Of a DNA stretch of 13,420 nucleotides, positions 389 through 11,896 are shown in pieces. The DNA comes from Candidatus Heimdallarchaeota archaeon. Its GTDB lineage: Archaea > Asgardarchaeota > Heimdallarchaeia > Heimdallarchaeales > Heimdallarchaeaceae. Below the pieces are notes generated by a model. The model was not told the origin of the DNA. It worked only from the letters and a program-made list of their open reading frames with translations, and ran no database searches. How positions within the stretch are numbered: position 1 is the stretch's first letter; each line of letters opens with the position of its first letter. The translations under genes and the position numbers were made by a program. Where the stretch lies: the NCBI GenBank assembly GCA_030668825.1, contig DAOVET010000072.1:1-13420 (forward strand). The letters run 5' to 3'.

Positions 389-2206
389 TTAATCTGTTTG
401 AGTAGTAAGGGAATCTGTTCTTGTTTTAACAATCTTTTCTTCCCATAATTTTTTCATTTCTGCACTTGTTTCTAATAAGTCATCTAATTTACCTTGAGCT
501 TCTATTCTCCCCTCCTTAAGTACAATAACATTATCAGCTCTTCGAAGTGCGATGGGGCGGTGCGAGACTGCTAAACAAGTTGATACTCCACTTCTGTCAA
601 AAACTCTTCTCCAGAGTTTTTGTTCTGTTTCAACATCAAGGGCACTTGATAGATCATCAAAAATATAAATTTCTGAATCTCTTGCAAACATTCTTGCTGC
701 TGCTAATCGTTGTCTTTGCCCCCCTGATAGTTTGACACCCTTTGGACCAATTAGTGTATCCAAGCCTTTCTCGAAATCTAAAACTTCCTTTTCAATTACT
801 GCCAGTTTCAAAGAATCTTCAATATCGACAGATTCTTCAGGTAATCCCATTAGTATATTATCTTTAACTGTCTCACTAAAGAGACGTGGAACTTGTGATG
901 TAAAAGCTGTTATTGGTGGCACAAAGAATTCATCTGGTTTTTCGACCTCCTCCCCATTCCACAGTAGTACTCCTTCATCCTTTGGTAGTAAACCAATTAA
1001 AGTTCGTAGTAGAGTAGTTTTCCCCGAACCTATTCTACCTGTGATTACTGTAAACGATCCTTTAGCTATTGAAAGACTAACATCCTTGATACCTTTGTCT
1101 GAATCTGGATAGGTATAAGATAGATTCTTTACCTCAAAATTCATCAATTTATTTTCTTCTGCGATATTCAACGCTTGTATTTTTGGATATGTTTCTTTGA
1201 TATAGATAGGACCATGCCTAACCAAATTGAATTCTGTTATTTCAGGATCTTCACTTTTTATTAGCTTAAACATCCTTTCAAGTGAAACTTTAGTACGGAC
1301 GTATCTGGGGACCATATCTCCCATGTCCCAGATAAATTCTCCTAGTTCACCTAACAATACTACAAAAAATGCTAAATCACCTACTGAAAACAAATCACTT
1401 TGCATATTGTTTCCAACAAGAAACAGTATGGTACCTATTGCTAGATAGACTGTAACATAGTAAATGGCGTGAATCAAACGATGGAAAAGTTCATCTTTTA
1501 CTTCAGCTATTCGTCTCTTTCGATTAATCTCACCAAAATAATCTAGTACATGATCTTCAGCTGTTGCAACTTTAATTGATTGAACCGATCTGAAGATTTC
1601 TCCGATTGTTCGTGTTACTGCGCCTGCAGCTCTTCGACGATCTTTTCTTAACCTTGTAAAAATTGGTCTTGTGAAGAAAACTAATATCATCATAAACAGA
1701 AATGGAATACTTACAAATGCTGTTACCTTCCAGTTAATATCCCCCATAAGATAGAAGGATATTCCTGTAAAGATACCTAAGCTAAAGAAGGAAGTAAGGT
1801 GATAAACAAACCACATAACCTCTTCTATATCTCCTCTGAATCTGGAAACAGCTTCTCCTGGTGAATCAGGTAGTGCAACAGCCCCTGGTTTCTTGAAAAT
1901 TCCAAGTAACATATTTCTCCTAATTAATACTCTACTAGCTAGAATAAAGACCCACATTGTGAAAATGAAAACAAAATCTCCAACAAGTCGCATAGTTAGG
2001 GTTAGAGGAAGAACTAGAAGTACTAAAACCCAGATATTGACACTTATATTCCAGCCTGCTACCCCCTCTAGTTTGTTGAAAATCTCTCGAGCAATTATAG
2101 CAGCTGCTAAGGGTTGAAGGAAGAACAATATATCCGAGAGAAAACCTGCGAAAACCAATCCTGGTTTATAACGCAACATTCTCCAAGATAACCTTAATAC
2201 TTTCAT
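389..2206 (-). CDS. ABC exporter half-transporter (TMD+NBD), heterodimer subunit with degenerate Walker B
   Basis: N-terminal hydrophobic TMD. Walker [10 protein letters not shown]-loop SQVP, signature LSGGQ, Walker B IYIFDD, D-loop SALD, switch SHR. SD GAGGAG at 2215-2220 and a 4-bp ATGA overlap with the upstream gene. Confidence 0.95.
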
Positions 2207-4020
2207 TTCAACAACTCCTCAATTTCTCCAGTTTGTAGCAACTGATAGAATTTTGATTTCGTATCATTTGCTAGATCCTCTCTTTTTCCGTATTCGATTA
2301 TTTTTCCTTTATCGATAAGCAGAACATCATCAACTTTTTCCAGAGTTGCTAGCCGATGGGCGATTATTATGCCTGTTCTATTAATAAGCAATTTTTCAAT
2401 TGCTTGGTCAAGCAAATGCTCTGTAGCAGGATCTAATCTTGATGAAGCTTCATCTAAAACAACTAAATTTGGGCTCTTAATGAATACTCTAGCTAAAGCT
2501 AACAGTTGAGCTTCACCTGCAGAAATTCCCTGCTCACTAGATGAAATAATTGTGTCTAAACCTTCTGGGAGCTTCTCCAACCAATTTCCTAGACCAATAT
2601 CAAGCAGAATCGATTCGATGCGAATATCAGGTATTCTATTATCAAATAATGTTACATTTTCTCTAACCGAAGCTTGGAACAACTCCACATTTTGTGTTAC
2701 ATATGAGACCTTATCTCTTAAGTCCAGAAGTGATAAATTTGTAATTTTTGTATCATTTAATTTAATATTTCCATCATTTTGTTTGGTATCATATAATCTA
2801 AAAATAAGTCTAGAAATTGTTGTTTTGCCACTACCTGTGTGTCCAACAATCCCCAATGTTTGTCCAGGTTCAAGTTTGAAAGAGATATTACTAAGAACGT
2901 AATCATCTTCATTATAGGCAAAACTTAGATTATTAAATTCAATAGCTAAGGGACCAGAAGATAATTTTTCTTTACCAATATCCTGAATTTTTGTTTCCAT
3001 CTCTAACAATTTGTTGATTCTGTCAATTGATGCTCCTGCTCTTTGAAGATCTTGCATCTGTCTTGTAAGAACAAATATGGGTCGAAGCAATATTCCCGCG
3101 AATATTTGAATTAAGAATACTGTACCTAAAGATATCACACCAGTTCTAACCAAAGGAATACTAGGTGCGAAAATCAGTGTGTTGATGATAGCAATAACTA
3201 CCCATATAGCCATTACAAAGATTTGACCTCGAAATAAAGCTCTGCGAAAAGCTTTGAAATCCTTTCTAGATGCATCATGAAACTTGCGCATAACATTTTT
3301 CACACCTGCATTAGCACGAATGTCTTCTATTGCACTCAAGCTTTCTTCTATGGTTCCATACATGTCTGCGCTTGTTTGTCTTTGATTTTCCCAGGCTTTA
3401 ACTGAAAAGTTTCTAAGAACGTACATTACAATTATTGCCAAAATTGTGAAGGCAGTAAATGAAATTCCTATTATCCAATGTTTAGTGTATAATACTGCAA
3501 GAGATCCAATGATTACGAGTAGGGATGTAACTAACTGAACTGAGAATTGTGACAAGAAAGTAGCTAAGGTGTTTACGTCACCGTCAATTCTTTCAATCAT
3601 CTCTCCTGGTTTATGTTCATTATGAAATGTCATATCTAAATTTACACAATGTTTGGTTAAATCGAATCTAAGCATGTTTGTTGATGACCATGAAAGATTT
3701 TGACTCAGATAAACTGATCCTAAAGTAATCAGCTGTTGTATAACCATCAGAACGATATATGCACCTGCTAACAAGATTAGAGCCCGATTAATTGTATTTA
3801 GACTTACAAGAGGAATCTGTTTTCCTACCCAAAACACATTTATGTCTTGAATAGGAAAACCTCTGGTCGCTAAATCGATGAAACTTTCAATGATTAAGGG
3901 AGAGAAAATTAGTAGAACTGTTCCACTACTTAATAGGAAAGCTAACAATAACACTCTTCTCTTGAAAGGTGCTAGGTACTTCTTTTGTACCTCCCAATAT
4001 TTTTGTAGTGGAATTTTCAT
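2203..4020 (-). CDS. ABC exporter half-transporter (TMD+NBD), heterodimer subunit with degenerate signature
   Basis: TMD, Walker [13 protein letters not shown], signature ISAGEAQ, Walker B LVVLDEA, switch IAHR. Confidence 0.95.
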
Positions 4021-4045
4021 AGTCTTGGTTATTCGACAGAAGGGA

Positions 4046-4062
4046 CTTATAAATTTAATTTT
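4046..4062 (-). promoter_or_regulatory. Archaeal BRE-TATA promoter of the ABC operon
   Basis: Minus strand AAAATTAAA-TTTATAAG, with the TATA 26-33 bp upstream of the ATG at 4020. No SD, implying a leaderless or short-leader mRNA. Confidence 0.65.
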
Positions 4063-4089
4063 AACCGATTGAAATAAAAAATAGGGAAC

Positions 4090-4842
4090 TCATGAAGTTT
4101 CAAGAGTTCTGTTTTCTGGTAATCGGGGTCTTAAAACAAGATAAAGTAAACCACCAAACAATGGAATGCAGAAGAGTACGAATAATTTAATATTATTCCA
4201 TTCCCTTCTTTTCATATCACTCCAAATGACTATAGGGTAGAACAAAGTTAGCAGAGAAAAATCTATTGTCATCACCTGTATAAAACGAATATTCATAAAA
4301 CTTGATCCATACACACCCCACTTTCCATTGATGCTAGCTGTAATTATACCAAACAATACAAGGGCTAAAGCTAAAGCGGCTAATATAGTACCTAAGATAC
4401 GTGAATCAACTATTTTTGTGAACCATGTTTTTTTGGTCTTTGGGTTTTTTCTCCTAACTCCCCTTATTGCAAAATATGGCATCAATACATACATTCCAAG
4501 AGCAAATGATCCCAATACAAAAGGCCATGCGGGCATGAATCTTTCTCTGACTTCAATAAAGAGTATTACAGAATAGAGTAAAGCCCAAACACCAACTATC
4601 ATGAAAATACTCCATTCAACAGGATTGGTTTTCGCATACTCAATCGTGAAATCCCCAAAACCTGGATCACTTGGTTGTGCAGCTGGGGCCCATATAAATG
4701 TAAATATTAGGAAAAACAACCACACTACGAGAAATAATAAATTTGGACTCAAGAATTCTTTCCATGGGACTCTAAATTCTTTGATAGAAGATAATAAGTT
4801 TCTTTGTTTTTGTTCTTTTAATTCTGTTTCTGAATTTTCCAT
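4090..4842 (-). CDS. Conserved multi-pass membrane protein (resembles cyanobacterial/plastid DUF2834-annotated proteins)
   Basis: About 6 TM segments. Motifs PAWPFVLGSFALG..LMPY.A.R, K..DSR..G, RFIQVMTIDF, DMKRR and IPLFGGLLYLVLRP.LPE match my recollection of that family. SD AAGGAG at 4850-4855, 26-bp gap after upp, so probably co-transcribed. Confidence 0.7.
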   Translation of the reverse strand: MENSETELKEQKQRNLLSSIKEFRVPWKEFLSPNLLFLVVWLFFLIFTFIWAPAAQPSDPGFGDFTIEYAKTNPVEWSIFMIVGVWALLYSVILFIEVRERFMPAWPFVLGSFALGMYVLMPYFAIRGVRRKNPKTKKTWFTKIVDSRILGTILAALALALVLFGIITASINGKWGVYGSSFMNIRFIQVMTIDFSLLTLFYPIVIWSDMKRREWNNIKLFVLFCIPLFGGLLYLVLRPRLPENRTLETS

Positions 4843-4868
4843 TTTAGTTCTCCTTCTGAGATGTATTT

Positions 4869-5507
4869 TTATGTGTTGAATGCTCTGTTCCCTGCGTCTC
4901 CTAAACCAGGAACAATGTATCCCTTTTCATTGAGTTCCTTATCGATTGCACCAACTATGATGATTACTTCTGGAAACTCTTCCTGAATTCTTTCTATACC
5001 AAATTGAGATGCAATCGCACAAAGCACGATTATTTTGAGAGGTTTTTTGTTTTTAATTTCTTGGAGTGTAAATATCATTGTAGATCCACTTGCAATCATT
5101 GGATCAACAACTATGACATTTTTATCTTCAAGAATTGGAATGCTGGAATACATAGAATCAATTCGAAAATCCTTTCCATCGTCCTGAAGTTGTTTTCCTC
5201 TTGCTGCTGAAATTATTCCAACCTTAGCTCTGTGTAGTACTTCTAAAACTCCCTCTGACATAGGTACTGCAGCTCTTAAGATTGTAATTATGACAATGTT
5301 ATTCTTGATTTCGTTGAAGTAAGCTGTTCCTAAAGGTGTTTCAGTTGATAATTCTTCTGTCTCTAAAAATTCTGAAGCTTCATAAGCTAAATAACTACCA
5401 ATTCGCTTAAGATTTATTCTGAAATCTTCTGGTGTTGTATCTTTATTCCTTATTTTTCCAACAGTTTCTGAAATAAGAATATTAGTTTTACTACCATTTA
5501 TTAGCAT
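4869..5507 (-). CDS. upp: Uracil phosphoribosyltransferase (archaeal, Sulfolobus-like type)
   Basis: ILRAAVP, PRPP-binding VIVVDPMIASGST, and C-terminal uracil-binding AIDKELNEKGYIVPGLGDAG. Confidence 0.95.
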   Translation of the reverse strand: MLINGSKTNILISETVGKIRNKDTTPEDFRINLKRIGSYLAYEASEFLETEELSTETPLGTAYFNEIKNNIVIITILRAAVPMSEGVLEVLHRAKVGIISAARGKQLQDDGKDFRIDSMYSSIPILEDKNVIVVDPMIASGSTMIFTLQEIKNKKPLKIIVLCAIASQFGIERIQEEFPEVIIIVGAIDKELNEKGYIVPGLGDAGNRAFNT

Positions 5508-5534
5508 TCAATCAATAGTGTAAACTTGCTAGAT

Positions 5535-5548
5535 TAAATATATTTTTC
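5535..5548 (-). promoter_or_regulatory. BRE-TATA promoter of upp
   Basis: Minus strand GAAAAA-TATATTTA about 28-36 bp upstream of the ATG at 5507. Confidence 0.5.
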
Positions 5549-5572
5549 AAAAACAAAAGATGACTTAAGAGG

Positions 5573-5588
5573 ATAAAAGTAATATACT
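5573..5588 (+). promoter_or_regulatory. Probable BRE-TATA promoter of the esterase gene
   Basis: ATAAAAG-TAATATAC about 23-30 bp upstream of the GTG at 5610. Confidence 0.4.
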
Positions 5589-5609
5589 TAATTTGGCTTA
5601 CCTACCTTT

Positions 5610-6335
5610 GTGACATCTCATTCCAAAATTGGTTTCTTATTAATACATGGAGTAGGCAGTAATTGTGCTGTAATGAACCCATTAGAGGATTTCCTTACAA
5701 ATAAAGGCTTTAAGGTTTTCAACATCACTCTTCCGGGTCATAATACTTCCTCAAAGGATTTACTAAAGATTGGCTGGCAAGATTGGGTAGATTATTGTCA
5801 AGGAAAACTAGAAATTCTTATGGAAGATTGTCCAACAACTTTTATTGCTGGAACTTCCTTAGGTGGTGTCCTTGCACTCTATTTAGCCGCAACAAATCCC
5901 GAGTTGAGTGGAGTAATAACTTGTGCAACAGCTGTAAAACCTTATAATTTCCTATCATGGTTTATTACAAATTTTAGGGTCATACAATATTTTGTTCGCT
6001 GGATAAGAGTAGAAAAAATAAGTTCTAAATTAGTTGGTAATCCACAAAATTGGGAGGTTTATAAGAAAATACCTATGAAGAGTCTTGTAGAAATAGCAAA
6101 ATTGCTAGATAAGCTTAATCCGATTCTGGAAAACATTAGTCAACCCATATTAATTGTTCATAGTGAGAATGATAAAGCTGTATCAATAAAAGGCATAGAA
6201 CAAATTATTTCTTCAATCAGTTCGAGGGATCAAAGCATTGCTAGAATAGGCAAAGGTGGTCATGTAATTCTGTTAGATGAAGGTTGTACCCAAGCTCTTA
6301 CAGAGATAGAAAACTGGATAGATGTGAGAATATAG
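5610..6335 (+). CDS. Alpha/beta-hydrolase carboxylesterase/monoacylglycerol lipase-like
   Basis: Oxyanion motif LLIHG, TLPGH, nucleophile elbow GTSLGG, acid HSEND and catalytic His in GGHV. GTG start. Confidence 0.9.
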   Translation: MTSHSKIGFLLIHGVGSNCAVMNPLEDFLTNKGFKVFNITLPGHNTSSKDLLKIGWQDWVDYCQGKLEILMEDCPTTFIAGTSLGGVLALYLAATNPELSGVITCATAVKPYNFLSWFITNFRVIQYFVRWIRVEKISSKLVGNPQNWEVYKKIPMKSLVEIAKLLDKLNPILENISQPILIVHSENDKAVSIKGIEQIISSISSRDQSIARIGKGGHVILLDEGCTQALTEIENWIDVRI

Positions 6336-6363
6336 AAAACTGATTTTAATTTATTTGATTAAC

Positions 6364-6408
6364 TATATAAGTGTGAAATGGCGGTATTTTACATATTAAG
6401 ATATGTAA
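6364..6408 (+). promoter_or_regulatory. TATA box plus palindromic operator of the GNAT gene
   Basis: TATATAAG at 6364-6371. Perfect inverted repeat TTACATAT-TAAG-ATATGTAA at 6389-6408. Confidence 0.6.
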
Positions 6409-6424
6409 CGTAGGATTGAGTATT

Positions 6425-7498
6425 ATGACTGAGAAATTTGATATTAATCAAATCAAAGTAGAACAAGCTAACTTGTTGAATTATACAAAAGAAGATTGGA
6501 ATCTATATCATGAGTATAGAAAAATTAGACATTCTGAAGCAAATCTTGATGATCCTTTTGTTGATGATGAACCCACAGAAAAATCTTTGAAGATGCAAGT
6601 AAATCATCCTGAATTTGATTTCCAATTCTCTGCTATTATCGATAGTTCGACAAACAAATTTGTAGGTAGAGTTGTTTATGGAGGATTCCGTGAAACATCA
6701 GCATCTTACGCGGGTAATAAGCATTTACTACAATTTGATTTAGTTCTTCTGAAAAAATATCGGAACAAAGGAATTGAAACAATAGTACTGAAACAAATAT
6801 GTGAATATGGAAAGAAGAAAAACCATTCTATTCTAGTTTCAGGTTCAGATGAAAAAGATGGAAAAGCTTTTCTAAAGGAAATTGGTGCTCAAACAGCTCT
6901 ATCTGGTGTTGAGAATCGTCTTAAGTTGGAAGAAGTAGAATGGAATATGGTTGAAACATGGGCCGCGGAAGGTCCTAAGCGTTCTCCAGATACAGAACTT
7001 AAGCTAGTCTATTCCATCCCTGATGATATTCTTGAGAAGTATTGTAAAGTATATACTGAAACACTTAATCAACAGCCTCTTGGAGATCTCGATGTGAACG
7101 ATATTGTTTTCACTCCTGAACTTTTCAGAGATACAGAAAAACGAAGAGCAGCACTTGGAAGAAAACATATAACTTTCTACACCTTAGAACCTAATGGAGA
7201 CATATCTGGGTTAACAGAGTTGGAATACCGACCTGAAAGAGAGACTATGGTTGAACAACTTCTCACTGGTGTACAAGAACAATACCGTGGTCGTGGTCTT
7301 GGAAAATGGTTGAAAGCTGAGATGTTGCTAAAGATAAAGGAAGAATTTCCAAAAGCAAAGATTGTTTCAACAGGAAATGCAACAACTAATGCTCCAATGC
7401 TTTCTATTAATGATCGACTTGGATTCAAACCTCATAAAGAGGGAATAACTGCTCAATTGACACTAGAAAGTCTAGAAAAATACTTGGAAACTAAATAA
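6425..7498 (+). CDS. Tandem (two-domain) GNAT N-acetyltransferase
   Basis: C-terminal GNAT: LTGVQEQYRGRGLGKWLK and TGNATTNAPMLSINDRLGF. N-terminal GNAT: YRNKGIET...GKAFLKEIG. Start placed at ATG 6425; in-frame TTG 6416 is the alternative. Confidence 0.9.
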   Translation: MTEKFDINQIKVEQANLLNYTKEDWNLYHEYRKIRHSEANLDDPFVDDEPTEKSLKMQVNHPEFDFQFSAIIDSSTNKFVGRVVYGGFRETSASYAGNKHLLQFDLVLLKKYRNKGIETIVLKQICEYGKKKNHSILVSGSDEKDGKAFLKEIGAQTALSGVENRLKLEEVEWNMVETWAAEGPKRSPDTELKLVYSIPDDILEKYCKVYTETLNQQPLGDLDVNDIVFTPELFRDTEKRRAALGRKHITFYTLEPNGDISGLTELEYRPERETMVEQLLTGVQEQYRGRGLGKWLKAEMLLKIKEEFPKAKIVSTGNATTNAPMLSINDRLGFKPHKEGITAQLTLESLEKYLETK

Positions 7499-7503
7499 CC
7501 TAC

Positions 7504-8115
7504 TTATTTTTCTCTTTTTTGTTTTTTCTTAATTTTTGGAAAATATGCTCCTGTGGTTTTTTGATATTCTTTGTATGAATCTCCAAACCTTTTAACTAAA
7601 TCCATTTCCTCAAAATACAACATGATTGGCATATAGATTATAATAGATATTGTCATCAAAATAACAAGGAACCATGAGTTGAGAGCTAAACCAAGAGCTG
7701 GAAACATAAGCATTCCTCCAGCAGTTTGAGGATGTCTGATGGAATTGTAGATTCCTCCATACATTTCAGTTTCTTCTGATGGAGTAAGAGTTTCTTTTCC
7801 TGCATCTTTCACTCCTTTGTAAATCAAGACTGCCCCTGGTATTGTTGTGATCAAGCTTAAAACAAAACCTAACCACCATTGATTGGAGAATATTCTCCAA
7901 TCAAGCTTAGGAACTGGAAACCATATCCAAAGAACAGGTGCAACAAAAGCAATTAGCTCAAAAAATGAAGCCGTTAGTCTTAGATTTCTACAAAACTTCC
8001 AAGCTTTTTCTCCCATCCTTTCACTCAATGTAACTGGTAGGAGACTAAAGAAATACAACACAGAGAATAAAATAAGCGAAAGTATTATTATTGCAAGATT
8101 TATCCACTCATACAT
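7504..8115 (-). CDS. Isoprenylcysteine carboxylmethyltransferase/PEMT-family integral membrane methyltransferase
   Basis: About 5 TM segments. GGIYNSIRHPQ and EE..L..RFGDSYKEYQKTTGAYFP SAM-binding C-terminal motifs. Substrate unknown. Confidence 0.88.
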   Translation of the reverse strand: MYEWINLAIIILSLILFSVLYFFSLLPVTLSERMGEKAWKFCRNLRLTASFFELIAFVAPVLWIWFPVPKLDWRIFSNQWWLGFVLSLITTIPGAVLIYKGVKDAGKETLTPSEETEMYGGIYNSIRHPQTAGGMLMFPALGLALNSWFLVILMTISIIIYMPIMLYFEEMDLVKRFGDSYKEYQKTTGAYFPKIKKKQKREK

Positions 8116-8137
8116 ATTAAGAATGGAACTTTCTTAT

Positions 8138-8152
8138 CTGATAAATTTTTTC
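8138..8152 (-). promoter_or_regulatory. BRE-TATA promoter of the ICMT-family gene
   Basis: Minus strand GAAAAAA-TTTATCAG, 23-30 bp upstream of the ATG at 8115. Confidence 0.55.
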
Positions 8153-8176
8153 TGTATAAGACTAGAAACAATACAG

Positions 8177-9178
8177 TTACTCCTTTAACTTGACTTTACC
8201 AAATTTAGAAATCCAATCATTTTTATCATACATTTCTAACAAGAAAACATTGTCTAAATGTTCTTTAAGGAAATACACTTCCTTACCAAGTTTCTCAGCA
8301 AATTTGACTTCTATATGCACTCCTCTCCCAACAAAGTGTCCATCATCATGTTCTATTGCAGAAAAGATAACTATGTCACTTTTGCTCAAAAGATCAAGAC
8401 ATTTCTTCATTATTTCCTTTCCAGAAGAATCTTTCCATTTTTTCTCATATTTGGCAGGATTAATTATATCCGCTTCTGGAAATACTTTTTTTATTAGCTT
8501 AAGTTCTCTCTTCTCTTGTCTTTTCCCATAGATATTCATGGAATGAGCATAATATATCTGTGGAATGATTCTGTATTGTTTCCGTTTATACAATTCTAGA
8601 AGTATGCACGCCGTATAAAACGCATCATAATTTGCTCTATGTTCTTCAAACTCCCTAATCTTCTCTTCAAGTTCTTTGTTAATAATGATGCTTTCTGTAT
8701 TCTTACTAAGAAGTTTTCTCCTCGAATGAGCCAATTTGTAAATTCTATTTTTATATTTCTTACCAGGAGGTCTAAGGTACTCTGATGCAGATAACATTAC
8801 ACATGGAGCTGTTTTTGTTTTACTGCTTTCTTCGTTGATATTCCATGGTTCATGTTGAAGAAACTTATCAAAATCAAATGCATTATTATACGCTGCAATA
8901 AATTTACCAGCAAGAATCTGACGCACTTCTTCAATTACTGTCGTTAAATCTTTCTCAGCATTTTGTATTTTATCAACTGATAGAACACCTTTTCTGAATA
9001 TCCAGGAGTTGCGTAAGTTATCATCCCATGTGCTTATGTCGTAATGAATTATTGAGTGGTATACTTGGGCTATTTTTTGTTTTAACACATTCGCTCGCAT
9101 TATAGCAATTTCAACAACAAGATCTTTAGGCAATCCATCAAGACCTGTGGTCTCAATATCCAACACATAGATATCCAT
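8177..9178 (-). CDS. DEDDh (DnaQ-like) 3'-5' exonuclease fused to a C-terminal nucleoside 2-deoxyribosyltransferase-like domain
   Basis: ExoI VLDIETTGL (D7,E9), ExoII AYNNAFD (D102), ExoIII HRANYDA (H180,D185). Residues ~206-305 show IYYAHS..IINP..SDIVIF..GRGVHIEVKFAEKLGKEVY, matching the NDT/Rcl flavodoxin-like pattern. The exonuclease call is firm; the second domain is less certain. Confidence 0.82.
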   Translation of the reverse strand: MDIYVLDIETTGLDGLPKDLVVEIAIMRANVLKQKIAQVYHSIIHYDISTWDDNLRNSWIFRKGVLSVDKIQNAEKDLTTVIEEVRQILAGKFIAAYNNAFDFDKFLQHEPWNINEESSKTKTAPCVMLSASEYLRPPGKKYKNRIYKLAHSRRKLLSKNTESIIINKELEEKIREFEEHRANYDAFYTACILLELYKRKQYRIIPQIYYAHSMNIYGKRQEKRELKLIKKVFPEADIINPAKYEKKWKDSSGKEIMKKCLDLLSKSDIVIFSAIEHDDGHFVGRGVHIEVKFAEKLGKEVYFLKEHLDNVFLLEMYDKNDWISKFGKVKLKE

Positions 9179-9200
9179 TAAAATACAACATCAGCTATTC

Positions 9201-9215
9201 CTTTAAGTTTTTACC
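9201..9215 (-). promoter_or_regulatory. BRE-TATA promoter of the exonuclease fusion gene
   Basis: Minus strand GGTAAAAA-CTTAAAG, 23-29 bp upstream of the ATG at 9178. Confidence 0.5.
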
Positions 9216-9368
9216 CTTGCATTAAGGTTATCTTCTTGTAAGAGCATCCTTCTTGGATGTGTATGAAAAATGGTATTCAGATAACTGCAATTTTGCCATT
9301 TAAAAAATTGCATCTGACCTATTATTCTCCCCTATTCACATTTCTCACTGCTTAATATTGTAATAACA

Positions 9369-9381
9369 TTAATATAATAAA
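9369..9381 (+). promoter_or_regulatory. Probable TATA box of the Tag-like gene
   Basis: TTAATATAATAAA, with TATAATAA 23-30 bp upstream of the ATG at 9403. Confidence 0.45.
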
Positions 9382-9402
9382 TGTAGGCTTTATTGTTTGC
9401 TC

Positions 9403-9858
9403 ATGCCTGGAGAAAACGTACGAACTGGTTGGTTTTTCAGAGATACAGAGCCTCCTAACGATAATTCTTACTATGAAAATATGACTCGATGTGTATTCCA
9501 AGCAGGTTTAAGCTGGCAGCTTATTTCTGATAGGTGGTCTAATTTCAAAAAAGCTTTCAAAAATTTCAACATAGAAAAAGTAAGTAAATTTGATGAAGAC
9601 GATATTGGAAGACTATTACAAGATTCAGGAATAATAAGAAACAGAGCTAAGATTGAAGCAGCAATTATCAATGCAATGGTCTTTTCAGAAATCCAGGAAG
9701 AGTACGGATCCTTTAGAGATTTCATGGATAATCTAGATACATCTGAAAATTATAAACATGTCAAAAAAGAACTATCAAAACGTTTTGAACGCATGGGTTC
9801 TAAAACATCTATGGTATTTTTGTATAGTATTGGCGAAAAAATAAAACATGAAAATTAG
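9403..9858 (+). CDS. DNA-3-methyladenine glycosylase I (Tag)-family protein, short atypical variant
   Basis: FQAGLSW, F.KAF.NF.IEKV..F, LLQDSGIIRNRAKIEA.I.NA, EYGSF and RF..MG..T...FL..IG. ATG 9403 preferred over TTG 9397 on TATA spacing. Confidence 0.85.
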   Translation: MPGENVRTGWFFRDTEPPNDNSYYENMTRCVFQAGLSWQLISDRWSNFKKAFKNFNIEKVSKFDEDDIGRLLQDSGIIRNRAKIEAAIINAMVFSEIQEEYGSFRDFMDNLDTSENYKHVKKELSKRFERMGSKTSMVFLYSIGEKIKHEN

Positions 9859-9888
9859 TTCCTGGAACTTACTACTCTTTCATTAAGC

Positions 9889-10260
9889 TTAGAATACTAA
9901 AATTATAAAATCTATTATTACTAAAGCAAATGTTAGAACTGCTGATATAACTAATACAAATAGTAACAGTTTGTACTTCTTTTTACCGTAAATTCCGATA
10001 GCATTAACGATTGCATATAGTATTAGTCCCATAGCAAATAAGAATAGATAAAGCCCCCAAGTTAATTGTAAGAGTACTGCTATCCCCCCTACTATGGCTA
10101 GTATAGACATAATAAGTTCTGCAGCAATATGGAACAATCTTTCAAATGGATGTTCTATAAATCGAATCCCTTGTTTTCTAATTAATACTATGATCCAGAG
10201 TAAAGCCGTGATAGTACCCACACTAATTGAAAATATACCTGAGATTATTTCTAAAGGCAT
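9889..10260 (-). CDS. Small 4-TM hypothetical membrane protein
   Basis: 123 aa with four hydrophobic segments and an FHIAAE motif at the start of TM2. Has its own TATA-like element. Confidence 0.75.
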   Translation of the reverse strand: MPLEIISGIFSISVGTITALLWIIVLIRKQGIRFIEHPFERLFHIAAELIMSILAIVGGIAVLLQLTWGLYLFLFAMGLILYAIVNAIGIYGKKKYKLLLFVLVISAVLTFALVIIDFIILVF

Positions 10261-10282
10261 GATTGTTTTTTTTATTACTATG

Positions 10283-10296
10283 TTATAATATTTTCT
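10283..10296 (-). promoter_or_regulatory. BRE-TATA promoter of the small membrane protein gene
   Basis: Minus strand AGAAAA-TATTATAA, 23-30 bp upstream of the ATG at 10260. Confidence 0.55.
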
Positions 10297-10351
10297 TAAA
10301 GTTTGTAGTAGCTAGAGAATCTTCTCTCAATAGGATTTTGGTGATTAATAT

Positions 10352-10377
10352 AAAAGAAAAAGAGGAAAAAGGAAAAA
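10352..10377 (-). terminator. Archaeal U-rich (polypyrimidine) terminator ending the antiporter-like subunit operon
   Basis: Minus strand TTTTTCCTTTTTCCTCTTTTTCTTTT, starting 5 nt after the stop at 10382. Confidence 0.65.
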
Positions 10378-10381
10378 TAGA

Positions 10382-11896
10382 CTAAACTATAAGTGCAATT
10401 TTGCTCACAATTAAGTCTGGCCATAGACCAAGAACTATTAGAACAACTGCAATTATAGCTAAAGCCATTTTTTCGAATATTGGAATTTTTATTTTGCCTG
10501 TATCTTTAGCATCTGGCTCATCGAAGAGCATTTTCTTTAGAATATATAGATATCCTCCTAAAGCTAGTAAGGAGTTAAAGATGGCCATAACAACCAACAA
10601 AATGCTGTTGATAAACATCAAAGGATTAGCGGCGTTGGCACCACCATTGAAAGTAGCGAGAATTACCATTAGTTTTGATGCAAAACCACCTGTTATGGGA
10701 ATACCACCTAACGATAGTAAACCTATTGTTAGGACTGCACCAATAAAGGGTGATCTTCTTCCTATACCTTTCATGTCTCTGAGATCTCTTGATCCAAGTG
10801 TTGTAATTAGAACTCCACTGAGCAAGAACAGACCACCTTTACCTAAAGAGTGTGTAAGTATATGGAATACTGATGCTTGAACTCCTAAATTACCAGGAGC
10901 TAGAGAACCAATTCCGAGTATGATGTAACCAAGGTGTACAGTGGTCGAGTATGCTAAGATTCTCTTGAAATCAACAATATCTTTACGCTTGAATTGAGAG
11001 AACACTAAGTAATTCCCTTCAATCATAGTTAAGATACCTAACCAAGAGATAACAGCTCCGGCACCAGCACTTAATACATCAGGAGTATATGCGAAGTATA
11101 AAGTTCTATAGATACCTATTGCACCAGCTTTAACAACAATTCCAGAAAGTAGTGCGGAAATAGTTGAAGGAGCTGAGCTGTGAGCATCTGGTAACCAAGC
11201 GTTCAAGAATAGCATGGCTGCTGTTACTGCAAAGCCTGTTACGAACAGAGCGATTATTACTGCAGCTATAGCTGATGTACCACTAGCTTGTACTGCTATG
11301 GAAACGAGTTCAAAGTTTACCGAACCATAGAAACCGTATGTCAAAGCAGTAGCTAATAAAACCAACATACTTCCAGCAGTTGACATGATAAAGTATTTCA
11401 TCGATGCTTCTACTGCACCTCTTTTTGCTCTCTCAAAAGCTACAAGCACATAAGCACTTAGTGCAAACAGTTCCCATCCAACGAATAGTGTGATGAAATT
11501 GTTTGCCATAGTTACAGCGATTAAACCAGTGAGTAGTGTAAAAATTAATGCATAGTAGTAACCAAGTCCATTTTTACCTTTCATGTAGTTAACACTGAAT
11601 AGTACTACCATCCAGACAAGGAAGCTGAAAATAGTAATTAACACCGCTTCAAGTTGTCCAAACCTTAGCAGAACTCCAAGTTCATTAGCAATATATTCTC
11701 TAAATGCAGGTACATAAGTTGCAATAAATCCTAGAACAAAGACGCTTAACGCAACTATGTTTGCTAAAACATGATTAACACAATCAGCTTTTATCTTCAT
11801 TTTGGATAAGAATTTCTTCAGTTGCTCAAATAGTGACAAGAGTATAGCACCAGCAATTGGTATAATCAAGATTAAGGATAGATATGGGTTCAACAT
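10382..11896 (-). CDS. Proton-conducting antiporter-like membrane subunit (MrpD/MbhH/NuoN-like)
   Basis: About 14 TMs. LFVGWEL, EASMKYF, WLPDAHSSAPSTISALLSGIVVKAG, KRILAYST, HILTHSLGKGGLFL, LSLGGIPITGGFASK. Archaeal SD GGTGA at 11904-11908 and a 1-bp TAATG overlap with the upstream gene. Confidence 0.9.
   Translation of the reverse strand: MLNPYLSLILIIPIAGAILLSLFEQLKKFLSKMKIKADCVNHVLANIVALSVFVLGFIATYVPAFREYIANELGVLLRFGQLEAVLITIFSFLVWMVVLFSVNYMKGKNGLGYYYALIFTLLTGLIAVTMANNFITLFVGWELFALSAYVLVAFERAKRGAVEASMKYFIMSTAGSMLVLLATALTYGFYGSVNFELVSIAVQASGTSAIAAVIIALFVTGFAVTAAMLFLNAWLPDAHSSAPSTISALLSGIVVKAGAIGIYRTLYFAYTPDVLSAGAGAVISWLGILTMIEGNYLVFSQFKRKDIVDFKRILAYSTTVHLGYIILGIGSLAPGNLGVQASVFHILTHSLGKGGLFLLSGVLITTLGSRDLRDMKGIGRRSPFIGAVLTIGLLSLGGIPITGGFASKLMVILATFNGGANAANPLMFINSILLVVMAIFNSLLALGGYLYILKKMLFDEPDAKDTGKIKIPIFEKMALAIIAVVLIVLGLWPDLIVSKIALIV

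Follow-up and report, generated by a model that had tools for sequence, protein, structure and literature searches.

A predicted DEDDh exonuclease fused to an NDT/DNPH1-fold domain in Heimdallarchaeaceae, a possible trim-then-deglycosylate enzyme for nucleotide disposal

The window analysed here is a stretch of 13,420 nucleotides from a Candidatus Heimdallarchaeota archaeon (family Heimdallarchaeaceae; assembly GCA_030668825.1, contig DAOVET010000072.1), and the gene in question, hereafter the fusion gene, encodes a 333-aa protein in which a DEDDh-type exonuclease domain (N-domain) is followed by a domain (C-domain) predicted to share the fold of nucleoside 2'-deoxyribosyltransferases (NDT) and of DNPH1. 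The coordinates of the gene, its domains, its key codons and its neighbours are collected in Table 1. The open reading frame (ORF) is uninterrupted, as a preliminary description of the window had read it. A search of 5.8 billion proteins returned 64 matches to the fusion protein, about 60 of them full-length (330-340 aa), with identities down to 46%, and all the named homologues came from Heimdallarchaeota or Asgard metagenome-assembled genomes (MAGs). The fused proteins are publicly named “3'-5' exonuclease”, “DNA polymerase III epsilon-like” or “hypothetical” only; these names cover the exonuclease at most, so that the second domain has been left unannotated.

Related loci were scanned using one genome per species. 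A relative of the fusion is encoded at 23 loci, 16 of which hold a complete fused ORF (331-337 codons). Half or more of the words of the fusion stretch occur in 13 public sequencing runs, which are cold-seep and marine-sediment metagenomes from 11 studies, and contigs from four runs (four studies) pass through the stretch with no insertion, deletion or joint; one run contig covers all 1601 bases and may be the window's own source. Given the 16 complete ORFs in genomes of other species and the unbroken run contigs, the fusion is real and no assembly artefact, and of the kinds of support on which the preliminary description had made its reading depend, presence in related genomes is at hand, and agreement with sequencing data comes from the run contigs. 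No RNA run that contains the stretch is among the 24 runs listed, the one labelled RNA-Seq being probably DNA. Among 400 genomes of the phylum, C-domain profile matches as strong as those of the fusion (E 1e-47 or better) occur only in the window's own family, in which the fused form is single-copy and is found in 19 of 30 genomes from two genera only (17/24 in genus g1 and 2/2 in genus g2); the four genomes of genera g3-g5, two of which consist of a single contig and are 92-93% complete, gave no fusion match. In the window's own genome, the best candidate for a second copy was a 39-residue fragment (E 0.3) with two stops, which was dismissed.

Judged by fold and residues, the N-domain is a complete DEDDh exonuclease. 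Residues 5-151 match the Pfam model PF00929 (RNase_T) with 28.1 bits, above the cut-off of 24, and the N-domain matches the PADLOC DEDDh model (CRISPR-associated) with E 6.8e-14. The active site proposed in the preliminary description is complete, with D7 and E9 in the Exo I D-x-E motif, D102 in Exo II, and H180 and D185 in the Exo III H-x4-D motif; conservation was counted on 59 full-length homologues and, for the C-domain, also on 149 distant representatives, and each of these five residues is found in 59/59 homologues. The AlphaFold2 model of the full-length protein, with a mean predicted local distance difference test score (pLDDT) of 91.6 and a predicted template-modelling score (pTM) of 0.73, retrieved DEDDh domains throughout when searched with Foldseek. 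The matches included the DnaQ domain of Streptococcus thermophilus (E 3.8e-7), and further matches to the exonuclease fold were the N-terminal exonuclease of DinG, ExoX, RNase T, 3'hExo, oligoribonuclease, Cas2-DEDDh and the epsilon subunit; the RNase H-like exonuclease fold was assigned with a Foldseek probability of 1.00 and a target-normalised TM-score of up to 0.75. A profile search of PDB sequences with the N-domain gave weak DnaQ/PolC matches only (E about 7e-4). The domain is thus comparable in its complete Exo I-III motifs and its fold to DnaQ-like DEDDh domains (PolC, epsilon, DinG, Cas2-DEDDh, ExoX, RNase T), from which it differs by an insert of about 70 residues between Exo II and Exo III (aa 108-178) and by belonging to an Asgard-centred subfamily, while the NDT-like domain that the fusion protein adds is absent from all the structures matched. 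Stand-alone proteins of this exonuclease subfamily have about 185-240 aa. The subfamily is also found inside open frames of 628-1565 codons, with other fusion partners, in the Asgard genomes G241, G185, G142, G149, G182 (contig C49) and G250.

The C-domain was modelled alone from 16 sequences (window and related loci), which gave a pLDDT of 85 and a pTM of 0.80. Human DNPH1 (8rpt) was the best PDB match of this model in Foldseek (E 2.1e-5), the other top matches being the NDTs of Trypanosoma and Chroococcidiopsis and MilB (E in the range 2e-5 to 1e-3). In an exhaustive pass with VIA-align, nine chains reached a Z-score of at least 8, all from the NDT clan with Z 8.1-10.0: 7m5h (10.0), 1t1j, 8rh3, 7o62, 6evs, 1f8x, 6qai, MilB 4ohr (8.1) and YtoQ. 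NDTs proper (PF05014; 7m5h, 1f8x, 8rh3) stood among the top matches of this pass at Z 8.8-10.0, chains of ThsB, TIR, SLOG and DprA came next at Z 6.3-8.0, and a search of BFVD placed viral NDT-like proteins on top. On these models the C-domain has an NDT/DNPH1-like fold. The preliminary description had called the domain NDT/Rcl-like and had made a match to the NDT/flavodoxin-like fold the touchstone of that claim; the DNPH1 match and the nine NDT-clan chains uphold it as regards fold, while as regards family it has to be amended, the C-domain lying below the Pfam cut-off for NDTs and belonging to a family of its own.

By the profile searches, this family is large and forms its own branch, to which no Pfam model corresponds. 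When 1.84 billion representatives (50% identity) were searched exhaustively with the family profile, 566 proteins fell within E <= 1e-3 and 171 within E <= 1e-10; stand-alone proteins of 115-145 aa (about 125 aa) make up the majority. Of 49 such stand-alone members, PF05014 is touched by only 10 (best E 2.1e-4) and DUF4406 by 5, in each case weakly, and PHROG 355, a “nucleoside 2-deoxyribosyltransferase” model which the C-terminal part of the fusion protein itself matches with E 1.1e-5, by 10. Profile searches of PDB sequences with the C-domain yielded no significant chain, the best one being the NDT 7m5h (E 0.18).

Some members of the family lie on viral contigs. The nearest clusters in the ESM Atlas (127-132 aa, “hypothetical”) were placed largely in tailed viruses, which is taken as a lead only, and 8 IMG/VR viral contigs found with a narrowed alignment encode family members. 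An RNase_T gene was found on none of these 8 records, 7 of which are incomplete. No locus was obtained when viral contigs were searched using protein P0066 (described below) as query, and no match when the C-domain and two stand-alone relatives were compared by tblastn with 50,697 cultured-phage records. As most members stand alone, and some are viral with no RNase_T gene, it can be argued that the C-domain has an activity of its own. A PDB-sequence search with 4 large viral neighbour genes gave no match for three of them and a macrodomain for one. On the IMG/VR record L039, a gene that starts with a macrodomain (L039:6375-7304; E 6e-9 to PDB 2afc/2fg1) lies directly downstream of the viral stand-alone NDT-like gene, with a 7-base overlap, and hints at ADP-ribose chemistry beside this viral homologue.

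Active-site residues were examined with reference to DNPH1 and the NDTs. According to PMC10603095, the DNPH1 triad consists of Y24, D80 and E104, where E104 is the nucleophile forming the glycosyl-enzyme and D80 the general acid; the corresponding nucleophilic Glu is E98 in LlNDT (PMC10603095 and bioRxiv 10.1101/2023.08.16.553469). The window's own genome encodes a separate 158-aa DNPH1/Rcl homologue outside the window (L033:1480-1956, contig C108 of G000), which matches rat and human Rcl/DNPH1 with E 9e-8 to 1e-6 and PF05014 with 31.6 bits, above the cut-off. With its four Cys (CSKC...CLIC), the C-terminal tail of this protein resembles a zinc ribbon.

The motifs that the preliminary description had picked out in the C-domain are all in place: IYYAHS (208-213), N240-P241, SDIVIF (267-272) and GRGVHIE (284-290). 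E290, which it had put at the position of the nucleophilic Glu, is found in 59/59 homologues and 146/149 distant representatives, and two independent weak alignments agree with that assignment. In one, E290 falls on the catalytic Glu of 7m5h; in the other, made by hhalign (E 8e-4, probability 24%), it falls on the Glu of the DNPH1 homologue that the genome itself encodes. The alignment with 7m5h is a profile alignment ('...iGkGVyeEvkeAlklgkpv' vs '...IDAGVASEIGVAYAKGIPV'); it spans strand 1, the D-hydrophobic strand and the catalytic Glu motif. Y209 aligns with the strand-1 Tyr (Y24 in DNPH1) and is conserved in 59/59 homologues and 136/149 representatives; as a Tyr at this position is tied to deoxyribose substrates and a Phe to ribose in the DNPH1/MilB switch (PMC10603095), Y209 suggests by analogy a deoxyribose substrate. 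H212, Y217, E222, G284 and G286 are each found in 59/59 homologues, and the distant representatives keep H212 in 137, Y217 in 137 and E222 in 145 of 149. The Asp of the “D.V” motif, D268, which the preliminary description had counted among the motifs shared with these enzymes, is in the alignments not their catalytic Asp: 53 of the 59 homologues have D there, 4 have E and 2 have G, and it corresponds to the non-catalytic Asp that opens the strand “ADVVV” in Rcl, and the position of the general acid D80 aligns with Cys260. The latter is a Cys in 59/59 homologues, and C in 121, Y in 13 and F in 8 of the 149 representatives. By this low-confidence alignment, a complete Tyr-Asp-Glu triad is not seen in the C-domain; from the conservation pattern we infer that H212, Y217 and E222 are pocket residues which take over from the canonical Asp. 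To sum up the comparison with DNPH1/Rcl and MilB, the C-domain has in common with them the fold, the strand-1 Tyr and a G-x-G...E...A motif whose Glu stands where the nucleophile is expected; it differs by its low identity (about 14-19%), by Cys260 at the position aligned with the general acid, by the additional conserved H212, Y217 and E222, and by its fusion to an exonuclease in a genome that has a true DNPH1 homologue as a separate gene.

That the C-domain might be a nucleoside 2'-deoxyribosyltransferase proper, exchanging the bases of deoxynucleosides for salvage and only incidentally fused to an exonuclease, is suggested by the NDT models being its closest ones in Pfam and PHROG and by the NDT structures among its best fold matches. 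We nevertheless hold this to be very unlikely, because the PF05014 cut-off is not reached, because Gly284 (59/59), six residues before E290, replaces an Asp of 7m5h, because the exonuclease would yield 5'-monophosphates and not nucleosides, and because the linkage with an exonuclease is recurrent and hence hardly incidental.

This recurrence was seen in several arrangements. Two proteins carry the domains in reverse order: P0066 (489 aa) has a Zn-ribbon-like segment followed by the C-domain (111-234) and RNase_T (241-421), and P0149 (315 aa) has the C-domain (16-131) followed by RNase_T (139-303); their identities to the fusion protein are 52% and 34%, respectively, in the C-domain and 37% and 26% in the exonuclease. 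In genome G068, of the same class and another family, the two domains are encoded by separate genes that overlap over 8 bases: one for a stand-alone C-domain protein of 124 aa, the other for a 183-aa member of the same exonuclease subfamily, which scores E 1e-20 with the exonuclease hidden Markov model and 35.5 bits with Pfam RNase_T. A stand-alone C-domain gene and an RNase_T gene are convergent neighbours in G182, and in G108 the neighbour of the C-domain gene encodes a weak RNase H-like protein. A tree of the C-domain (65 rows, 125 columns) was built by a quick method; most of its forks are poorly resolved, and only two supported groupings were used, with support from the Shimodaira-Hasegawa-like approximate likelihood ratio test (SH-aLRT). 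The first joins the Heimdall fusions with P0066 and a stand-alone protein from Kariarchaeaceae (SH-aLRT 86), and the second groups P0149 with the genes of G068 and G108 (SH-aLRT 98). The two domains are kept together through a swap of domain order and a split into separate genes, and their linkage is recurrent. The preliminary description had proposed that the activities of the two domains are coupled; the reverse-order fusions and the overlapping genes speak for the coupling, and the activities themselves are predictions.

The C-domain is also found upstream of a region of XPD/DinG-type helicase. In P0078 this region matches DEAD_2 with 32.2 bits, above the cut-off, and in P0076 it stays below the cut-off; P0109, P0073, P0077 and P0220 were judged by eye to be similar fusions. 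These metagenomic proteins contain a Cys cluster and are very rich in Asn, Lys and Ile, and several of them look cut by contig ends. The partners to which the C-domain is fused or linked are thus only enzymes that act on DNA strands, i.e. the DEDDh exonuclease (in both orders) and XPD/DinG-type helicases, and this opens a polymer-directed reading, in which the NDT-like domain, a DNA glycosylase on a new fold, would take off a base of single-stranded DNA or of the nucleotide at the 3' terminus, and the exonuclease would then clear the abasic end. The DNA glycosylase gene tag as divergent neighbour (Table 1) and an active site that differs from that of the hydrolases of deoxynucleoside monophosphates (dNMP) are compatible with it; nevertheless, every characterised member among the top-ranking folds acts on mononucleotides or nucleosides, and the stand-alone viral copies have no detected DNA-handling partner, so that we consider this reading improbable. 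The broader form of the idea, for which the chance appears equally small, is that the whole “YYAHS...G-x-G-V-x-x-E” family is a widespread branch of the NDT fold, with His, Tyr and Glu in exchange for the Asp, that acts on nucleic-acid ends as a DNA glycosylase. Were it true, such an enzyme would strip terminal or unwound bases, and would be used by archaea, their viruses and defence islands.

Table 1. Position of the fusion gene, its domains and key codons, and the other features of the window
Feature	Position	Strand	Basis or remark
Fusion gene (333-aa exonuclease/NDT-like protein)	8177..9178	-	uninterrupted ORF; stop codon 8177-8179
Predicted DEDDh 3'-5' exonuclease domain, aa 1-199	8582..9178	-	Pfam, PADLOC, Foldseek, conserved catalytic residues
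Predicted NDT/DNPH1-fold domain, aa 199-333	8180..8584	-	model fold matches; family without Pfam model
Exonuclease catalytic codons (predicted)	D7 9158-9160, E9 9152-9154, D102 8873-8875, H180 8639-8641, D185 8624-8626	-	
C-domain conserved codons, first half	Y209 8552-8554, H212 8543-8545, Y217 8528-8530	-	
C-domain conserved codons, second half	E222 8513-8515, C260 8399-8401, E290 8309-8311	-	
Peptidase S9 fragment	first in window	+	family scan
Two ABC transporter genes	after peptidase S9 fragment	-	
250-aa membrane protein	between ABC transporter genes and upp	-	
Uracil phosphoribosyltransferase, upp	4869..5507	-	NCBIfam upp 211 bits, above cut-off; 2.7 kb downstream of fusion gene
Alpha/beta hydrolase	after upp	+	
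360-aa GNAT protein	after alpha/beta hydrolase	+	
ICMT/PEMT-type methyltransferase	between GNAT gene and fusion gene	-	
Intergenic region, fusion gene/tag	9179..9396	.	218 bp, shared by divergent genes
DNA-3-methyladenine glycosylase I, tag	9397..9858	+	Pfam Adenine_glyco E 3.5e-28; divergent neighbour
123-aa ORF without family	9889-10260	-	no Pfam, NCBIfam, PADLOC or PHROGs match
Two Mrp/NADH-dehydrogenase-type subunits	last in window	-	

Of the 16 related loci with a full-length copy, 14 share with the window a block that comprises Mrp antiporter, tag, upp, GNAT and ABC transporter genes. In the window, the fusion gene stands in this stable housekeeping setting, which does not resemble a defence island. 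The intergenic region that the fusion gene shares with tag is presumed to be the promoter region of both genes, an A/T-rich stretch being readable in the sequence about 25-35 bases upstream of the fusion ATG. In 10 of the 16 loci, tag lies 0.2-7 kb upstream of the fusion gene, and in three (L008, L010 and L012) upp is directly downstream and co-directional, with gaps of 73-142 bp.

Some particularities of this region were recorded along the way. Both in the window and in L002, tag is separated from the fusion gene by 218 bp, and in L001, L003-L005, L008-L010, L013 and L014 by 1.7-7 kb; since the longer gaps are filled with unrelated genes for small or membrane proteins, the interval looks like a local insertion hot spot. 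Two tandem copies of tag are present in L003. The Tag protein of the window is short (153 aa) and covers only positions 22-126 of the 177-position Pfam model, its relatives having the same length, so that the usual C-terminal part of Tag may be missing or divergent. The 123-aa ORF next to it is conserved beside tag in 9 related loci, with 40-91% identity.

The surroundings of distant Asgard homologues are of a different kind, 3 of their 7 loci lying among defence-like or mobile genes. The neighbours comprise ThsB-TIR, GIY-YIG, a metallophosphoesterase, a 651-aa SMC-type ATPase, a HerA-like ATPase and ParA in G068, HEPN RiboL-PSP and an nSTAND3 NTPase in G182, and Schlafen AlbA_2 in G178. At the G068 locus (L034, contig C224), the six genes named for this genome all belong to one co-directional run (positions 616-10415), in which the metallophosphoesterase has 350 aa and the 651-aa ATPase is of the SMC/AAA_23 type; the run also contains the split NDT-like/exonuclease pair, a 156-aa ORF and a 348-aa ORF. 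It resembles a defence island or mobile element with an SbcCD/Mre11-Rad50-like module. The G178 protein (L026:2395-3381, 328 aa), whose gene adjoins that of Schlafen AlbA_2, starts with about 200 hydrophobic residues, probably membrane-spanning, that precede the NDT-like domain.

An immune or conflict effector was considered on this basis, in which a triggered exonuclease would degrade nucleic acid and the NDT-like domain would deplete nucleotides or NAD+. Besides the defence-type genes next to distant stand-alone homologues in G068, G182 and G178, one may invoke for it the match of the N-domain to a CRISPR-associated PADLOC model, the family members on viral contigs, and the retron Ec86 (Eco1), whose NDT-like effector, according to bioRxiv 10.1101/2023.08.16.553469, depletes adenine derivatives. 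The likeness to Ec86, as that preprint presents it, is that of an NDT-like domain associated with nucleic-acid machinery; unlike Ec86, the fusion gene has no reverse transcriptase or multicopy single-stranded DNA (msDNA) partner among the window neighbours covered by general family scans, its C-domain matches no PADLOC model, and its context is of the housekeeping type. No sensor or partner gene is evident either, and the gene is single-copy and vertically conserved in its family (the 19 of 30 genomes given above), unlike defence genes, which are patchy. An effector function is therefore regarded as having little probability. The defence role suggested in the preliminary description is accordingly not supported at the window's locus, and of the defence-island and viral neighbourhoods that it had proposed to look for, defence-like ones surround only distant stand-alone homologues, and viral contigs carry other family members.

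The reading we prefer, with a confidence that falls somewhat short of even, is that the fusion protein is a trim-then-deglycosylate enzyme for nucleotide disposal; both activities, the substrate and the channelling between the two sites are what we infer here. The DEDDh domain would first shorten DNA (or RNA) from its 3' ends, one nucleotide per step, with release of 5'-mononucleotides, and the NDT/DNPH1-fold domain would then cleave the N-glycosidic bond of the released mononucleotide, with E290 as nucleophile, Y209 positioning the sugar, and H212, Y217 and E222 standing in for the canonical Asp. The products would be the free base and (deoxy)ribose 5-phosphate, so that damaged, mis-incorporated or foreign nucleotides, once trimmed, would not be re-phosphorylated and re-used, and the base would be available for salvage. 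Such a sequential mechanism is the most economical one, because both domains look competent, because they are kept together, and because the C-domain occurs alone in viruses. A link to base salvage also counts in its favour, upp being immediately downstream of the fusion gene in the three related loci mentioned and part of the same block in the window.

A number of observations weigh against this disposal mechanism. The C-domain alone reaches only 20.8 bits (E 4.5e-4) against PF05014, whose cut-off is 28.8. The position of the general acid D80 of DNPH1 falls on Cys260 (low-confidence alignment, hhalign probability 24%), and with no Asp at the aligned position, the chemistry may differ or be absent. 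As a canonical DNPH1 homologue is present in the same genome, there is no obvious need for another dNMP glycosidase. The exonuclease subfamily is found in 66 of 400 Asgard genomes (E <= 1e-8), the C-domain profile matching 27 of the 400, and most Asgard genomes with this exonuclease have no relative of the C-domain; the pairing is hence optional, and the exonuclease can work alone. At the seven stand-alone Asgard loci, a clear RNase_T neighbour was found twice and a weak RNase H-like one a third time; at the other four there was no exonuclease within the 4.3-6.4 kb of DNA around each. Finally, the two most distant loci (L016 and L017, 48% identity) have unrelated neighbours, with no upp/tag synteny, and as this synteny is confined to one archaeal family, it provides no independent evidence.

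The Asp not seen at the aligned position bears as well on a regulatory explanation, according to which the C-domain would be no enzyme, and would serve as a module for nucleotide binding or oligomerisation by which the exonuclease is regulated or dimerised, in the manner of SLOG or TIR-like sensor domains. The proximity of TIR, ThsB, SLOG and DprA in the fold list agrees with this, as does the obligate dimerisation of NDT-fold proteins reported in PMC10603095 and bioRxiv 10.1101/2023.08.16.553469. We think it unlikely, although it deserves more credit than the effector and glycosylase readings. The retention of E290, E222, H212, Y217 and Y209 across the 149 distant representatives is the typical pattern of an active site; the family consists mostly of small stand-alone proteins, including viral ones with no RNase_T gene, in which there would be nothing to regulate; and the enzymes of the NDT clan rank above the sensor folds. 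The unseen Asp, the separate DNPH1 homologue and the helicase fusions are the reasons why the regulatory, conflict-effector and polymer-directed alternatives are kept in consideration beside the disposal enzyme.

Both folds are known; the architecture, the C-domain family and the variant of the active site are new. The preliminary description knew of no characterised protein with this architecture, and the literature search, in which supplementary files were outside the scope, likewise found no paper on the architecture or on the C-domain family. Neither did it find a paper joining a deoxyribosyltransferase with DEDDh, or Heimdallarchaeota with DNPH1, and the papers listed for fused NDT-like/exonuclease proteins all deal with retrons; those that bring together SLOG, deoxyribosyltransferases, DNPH1 and exonucleases treat Thoeris or review defence systems.

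The finding marks a large and mostly stand-alone family (566 representatives) that has no Pfam model and is present on viral contigs, and the conserved residues that would take the place of the canonical Asp are clear targets for mutagenesis. If the disposal mechanism holds, the fusion protein would be the first enzyme in which exonucleolytic trimming is physically coupled to the destruction of the released nucleotide, i.e. a sanitation of the nucleotide pool at the point of excision, and this in Heimdallarchaeia, a group of wide evolutionary interest, in a genome that also encodes a homologue of the human pool sanitiser DNPH1.

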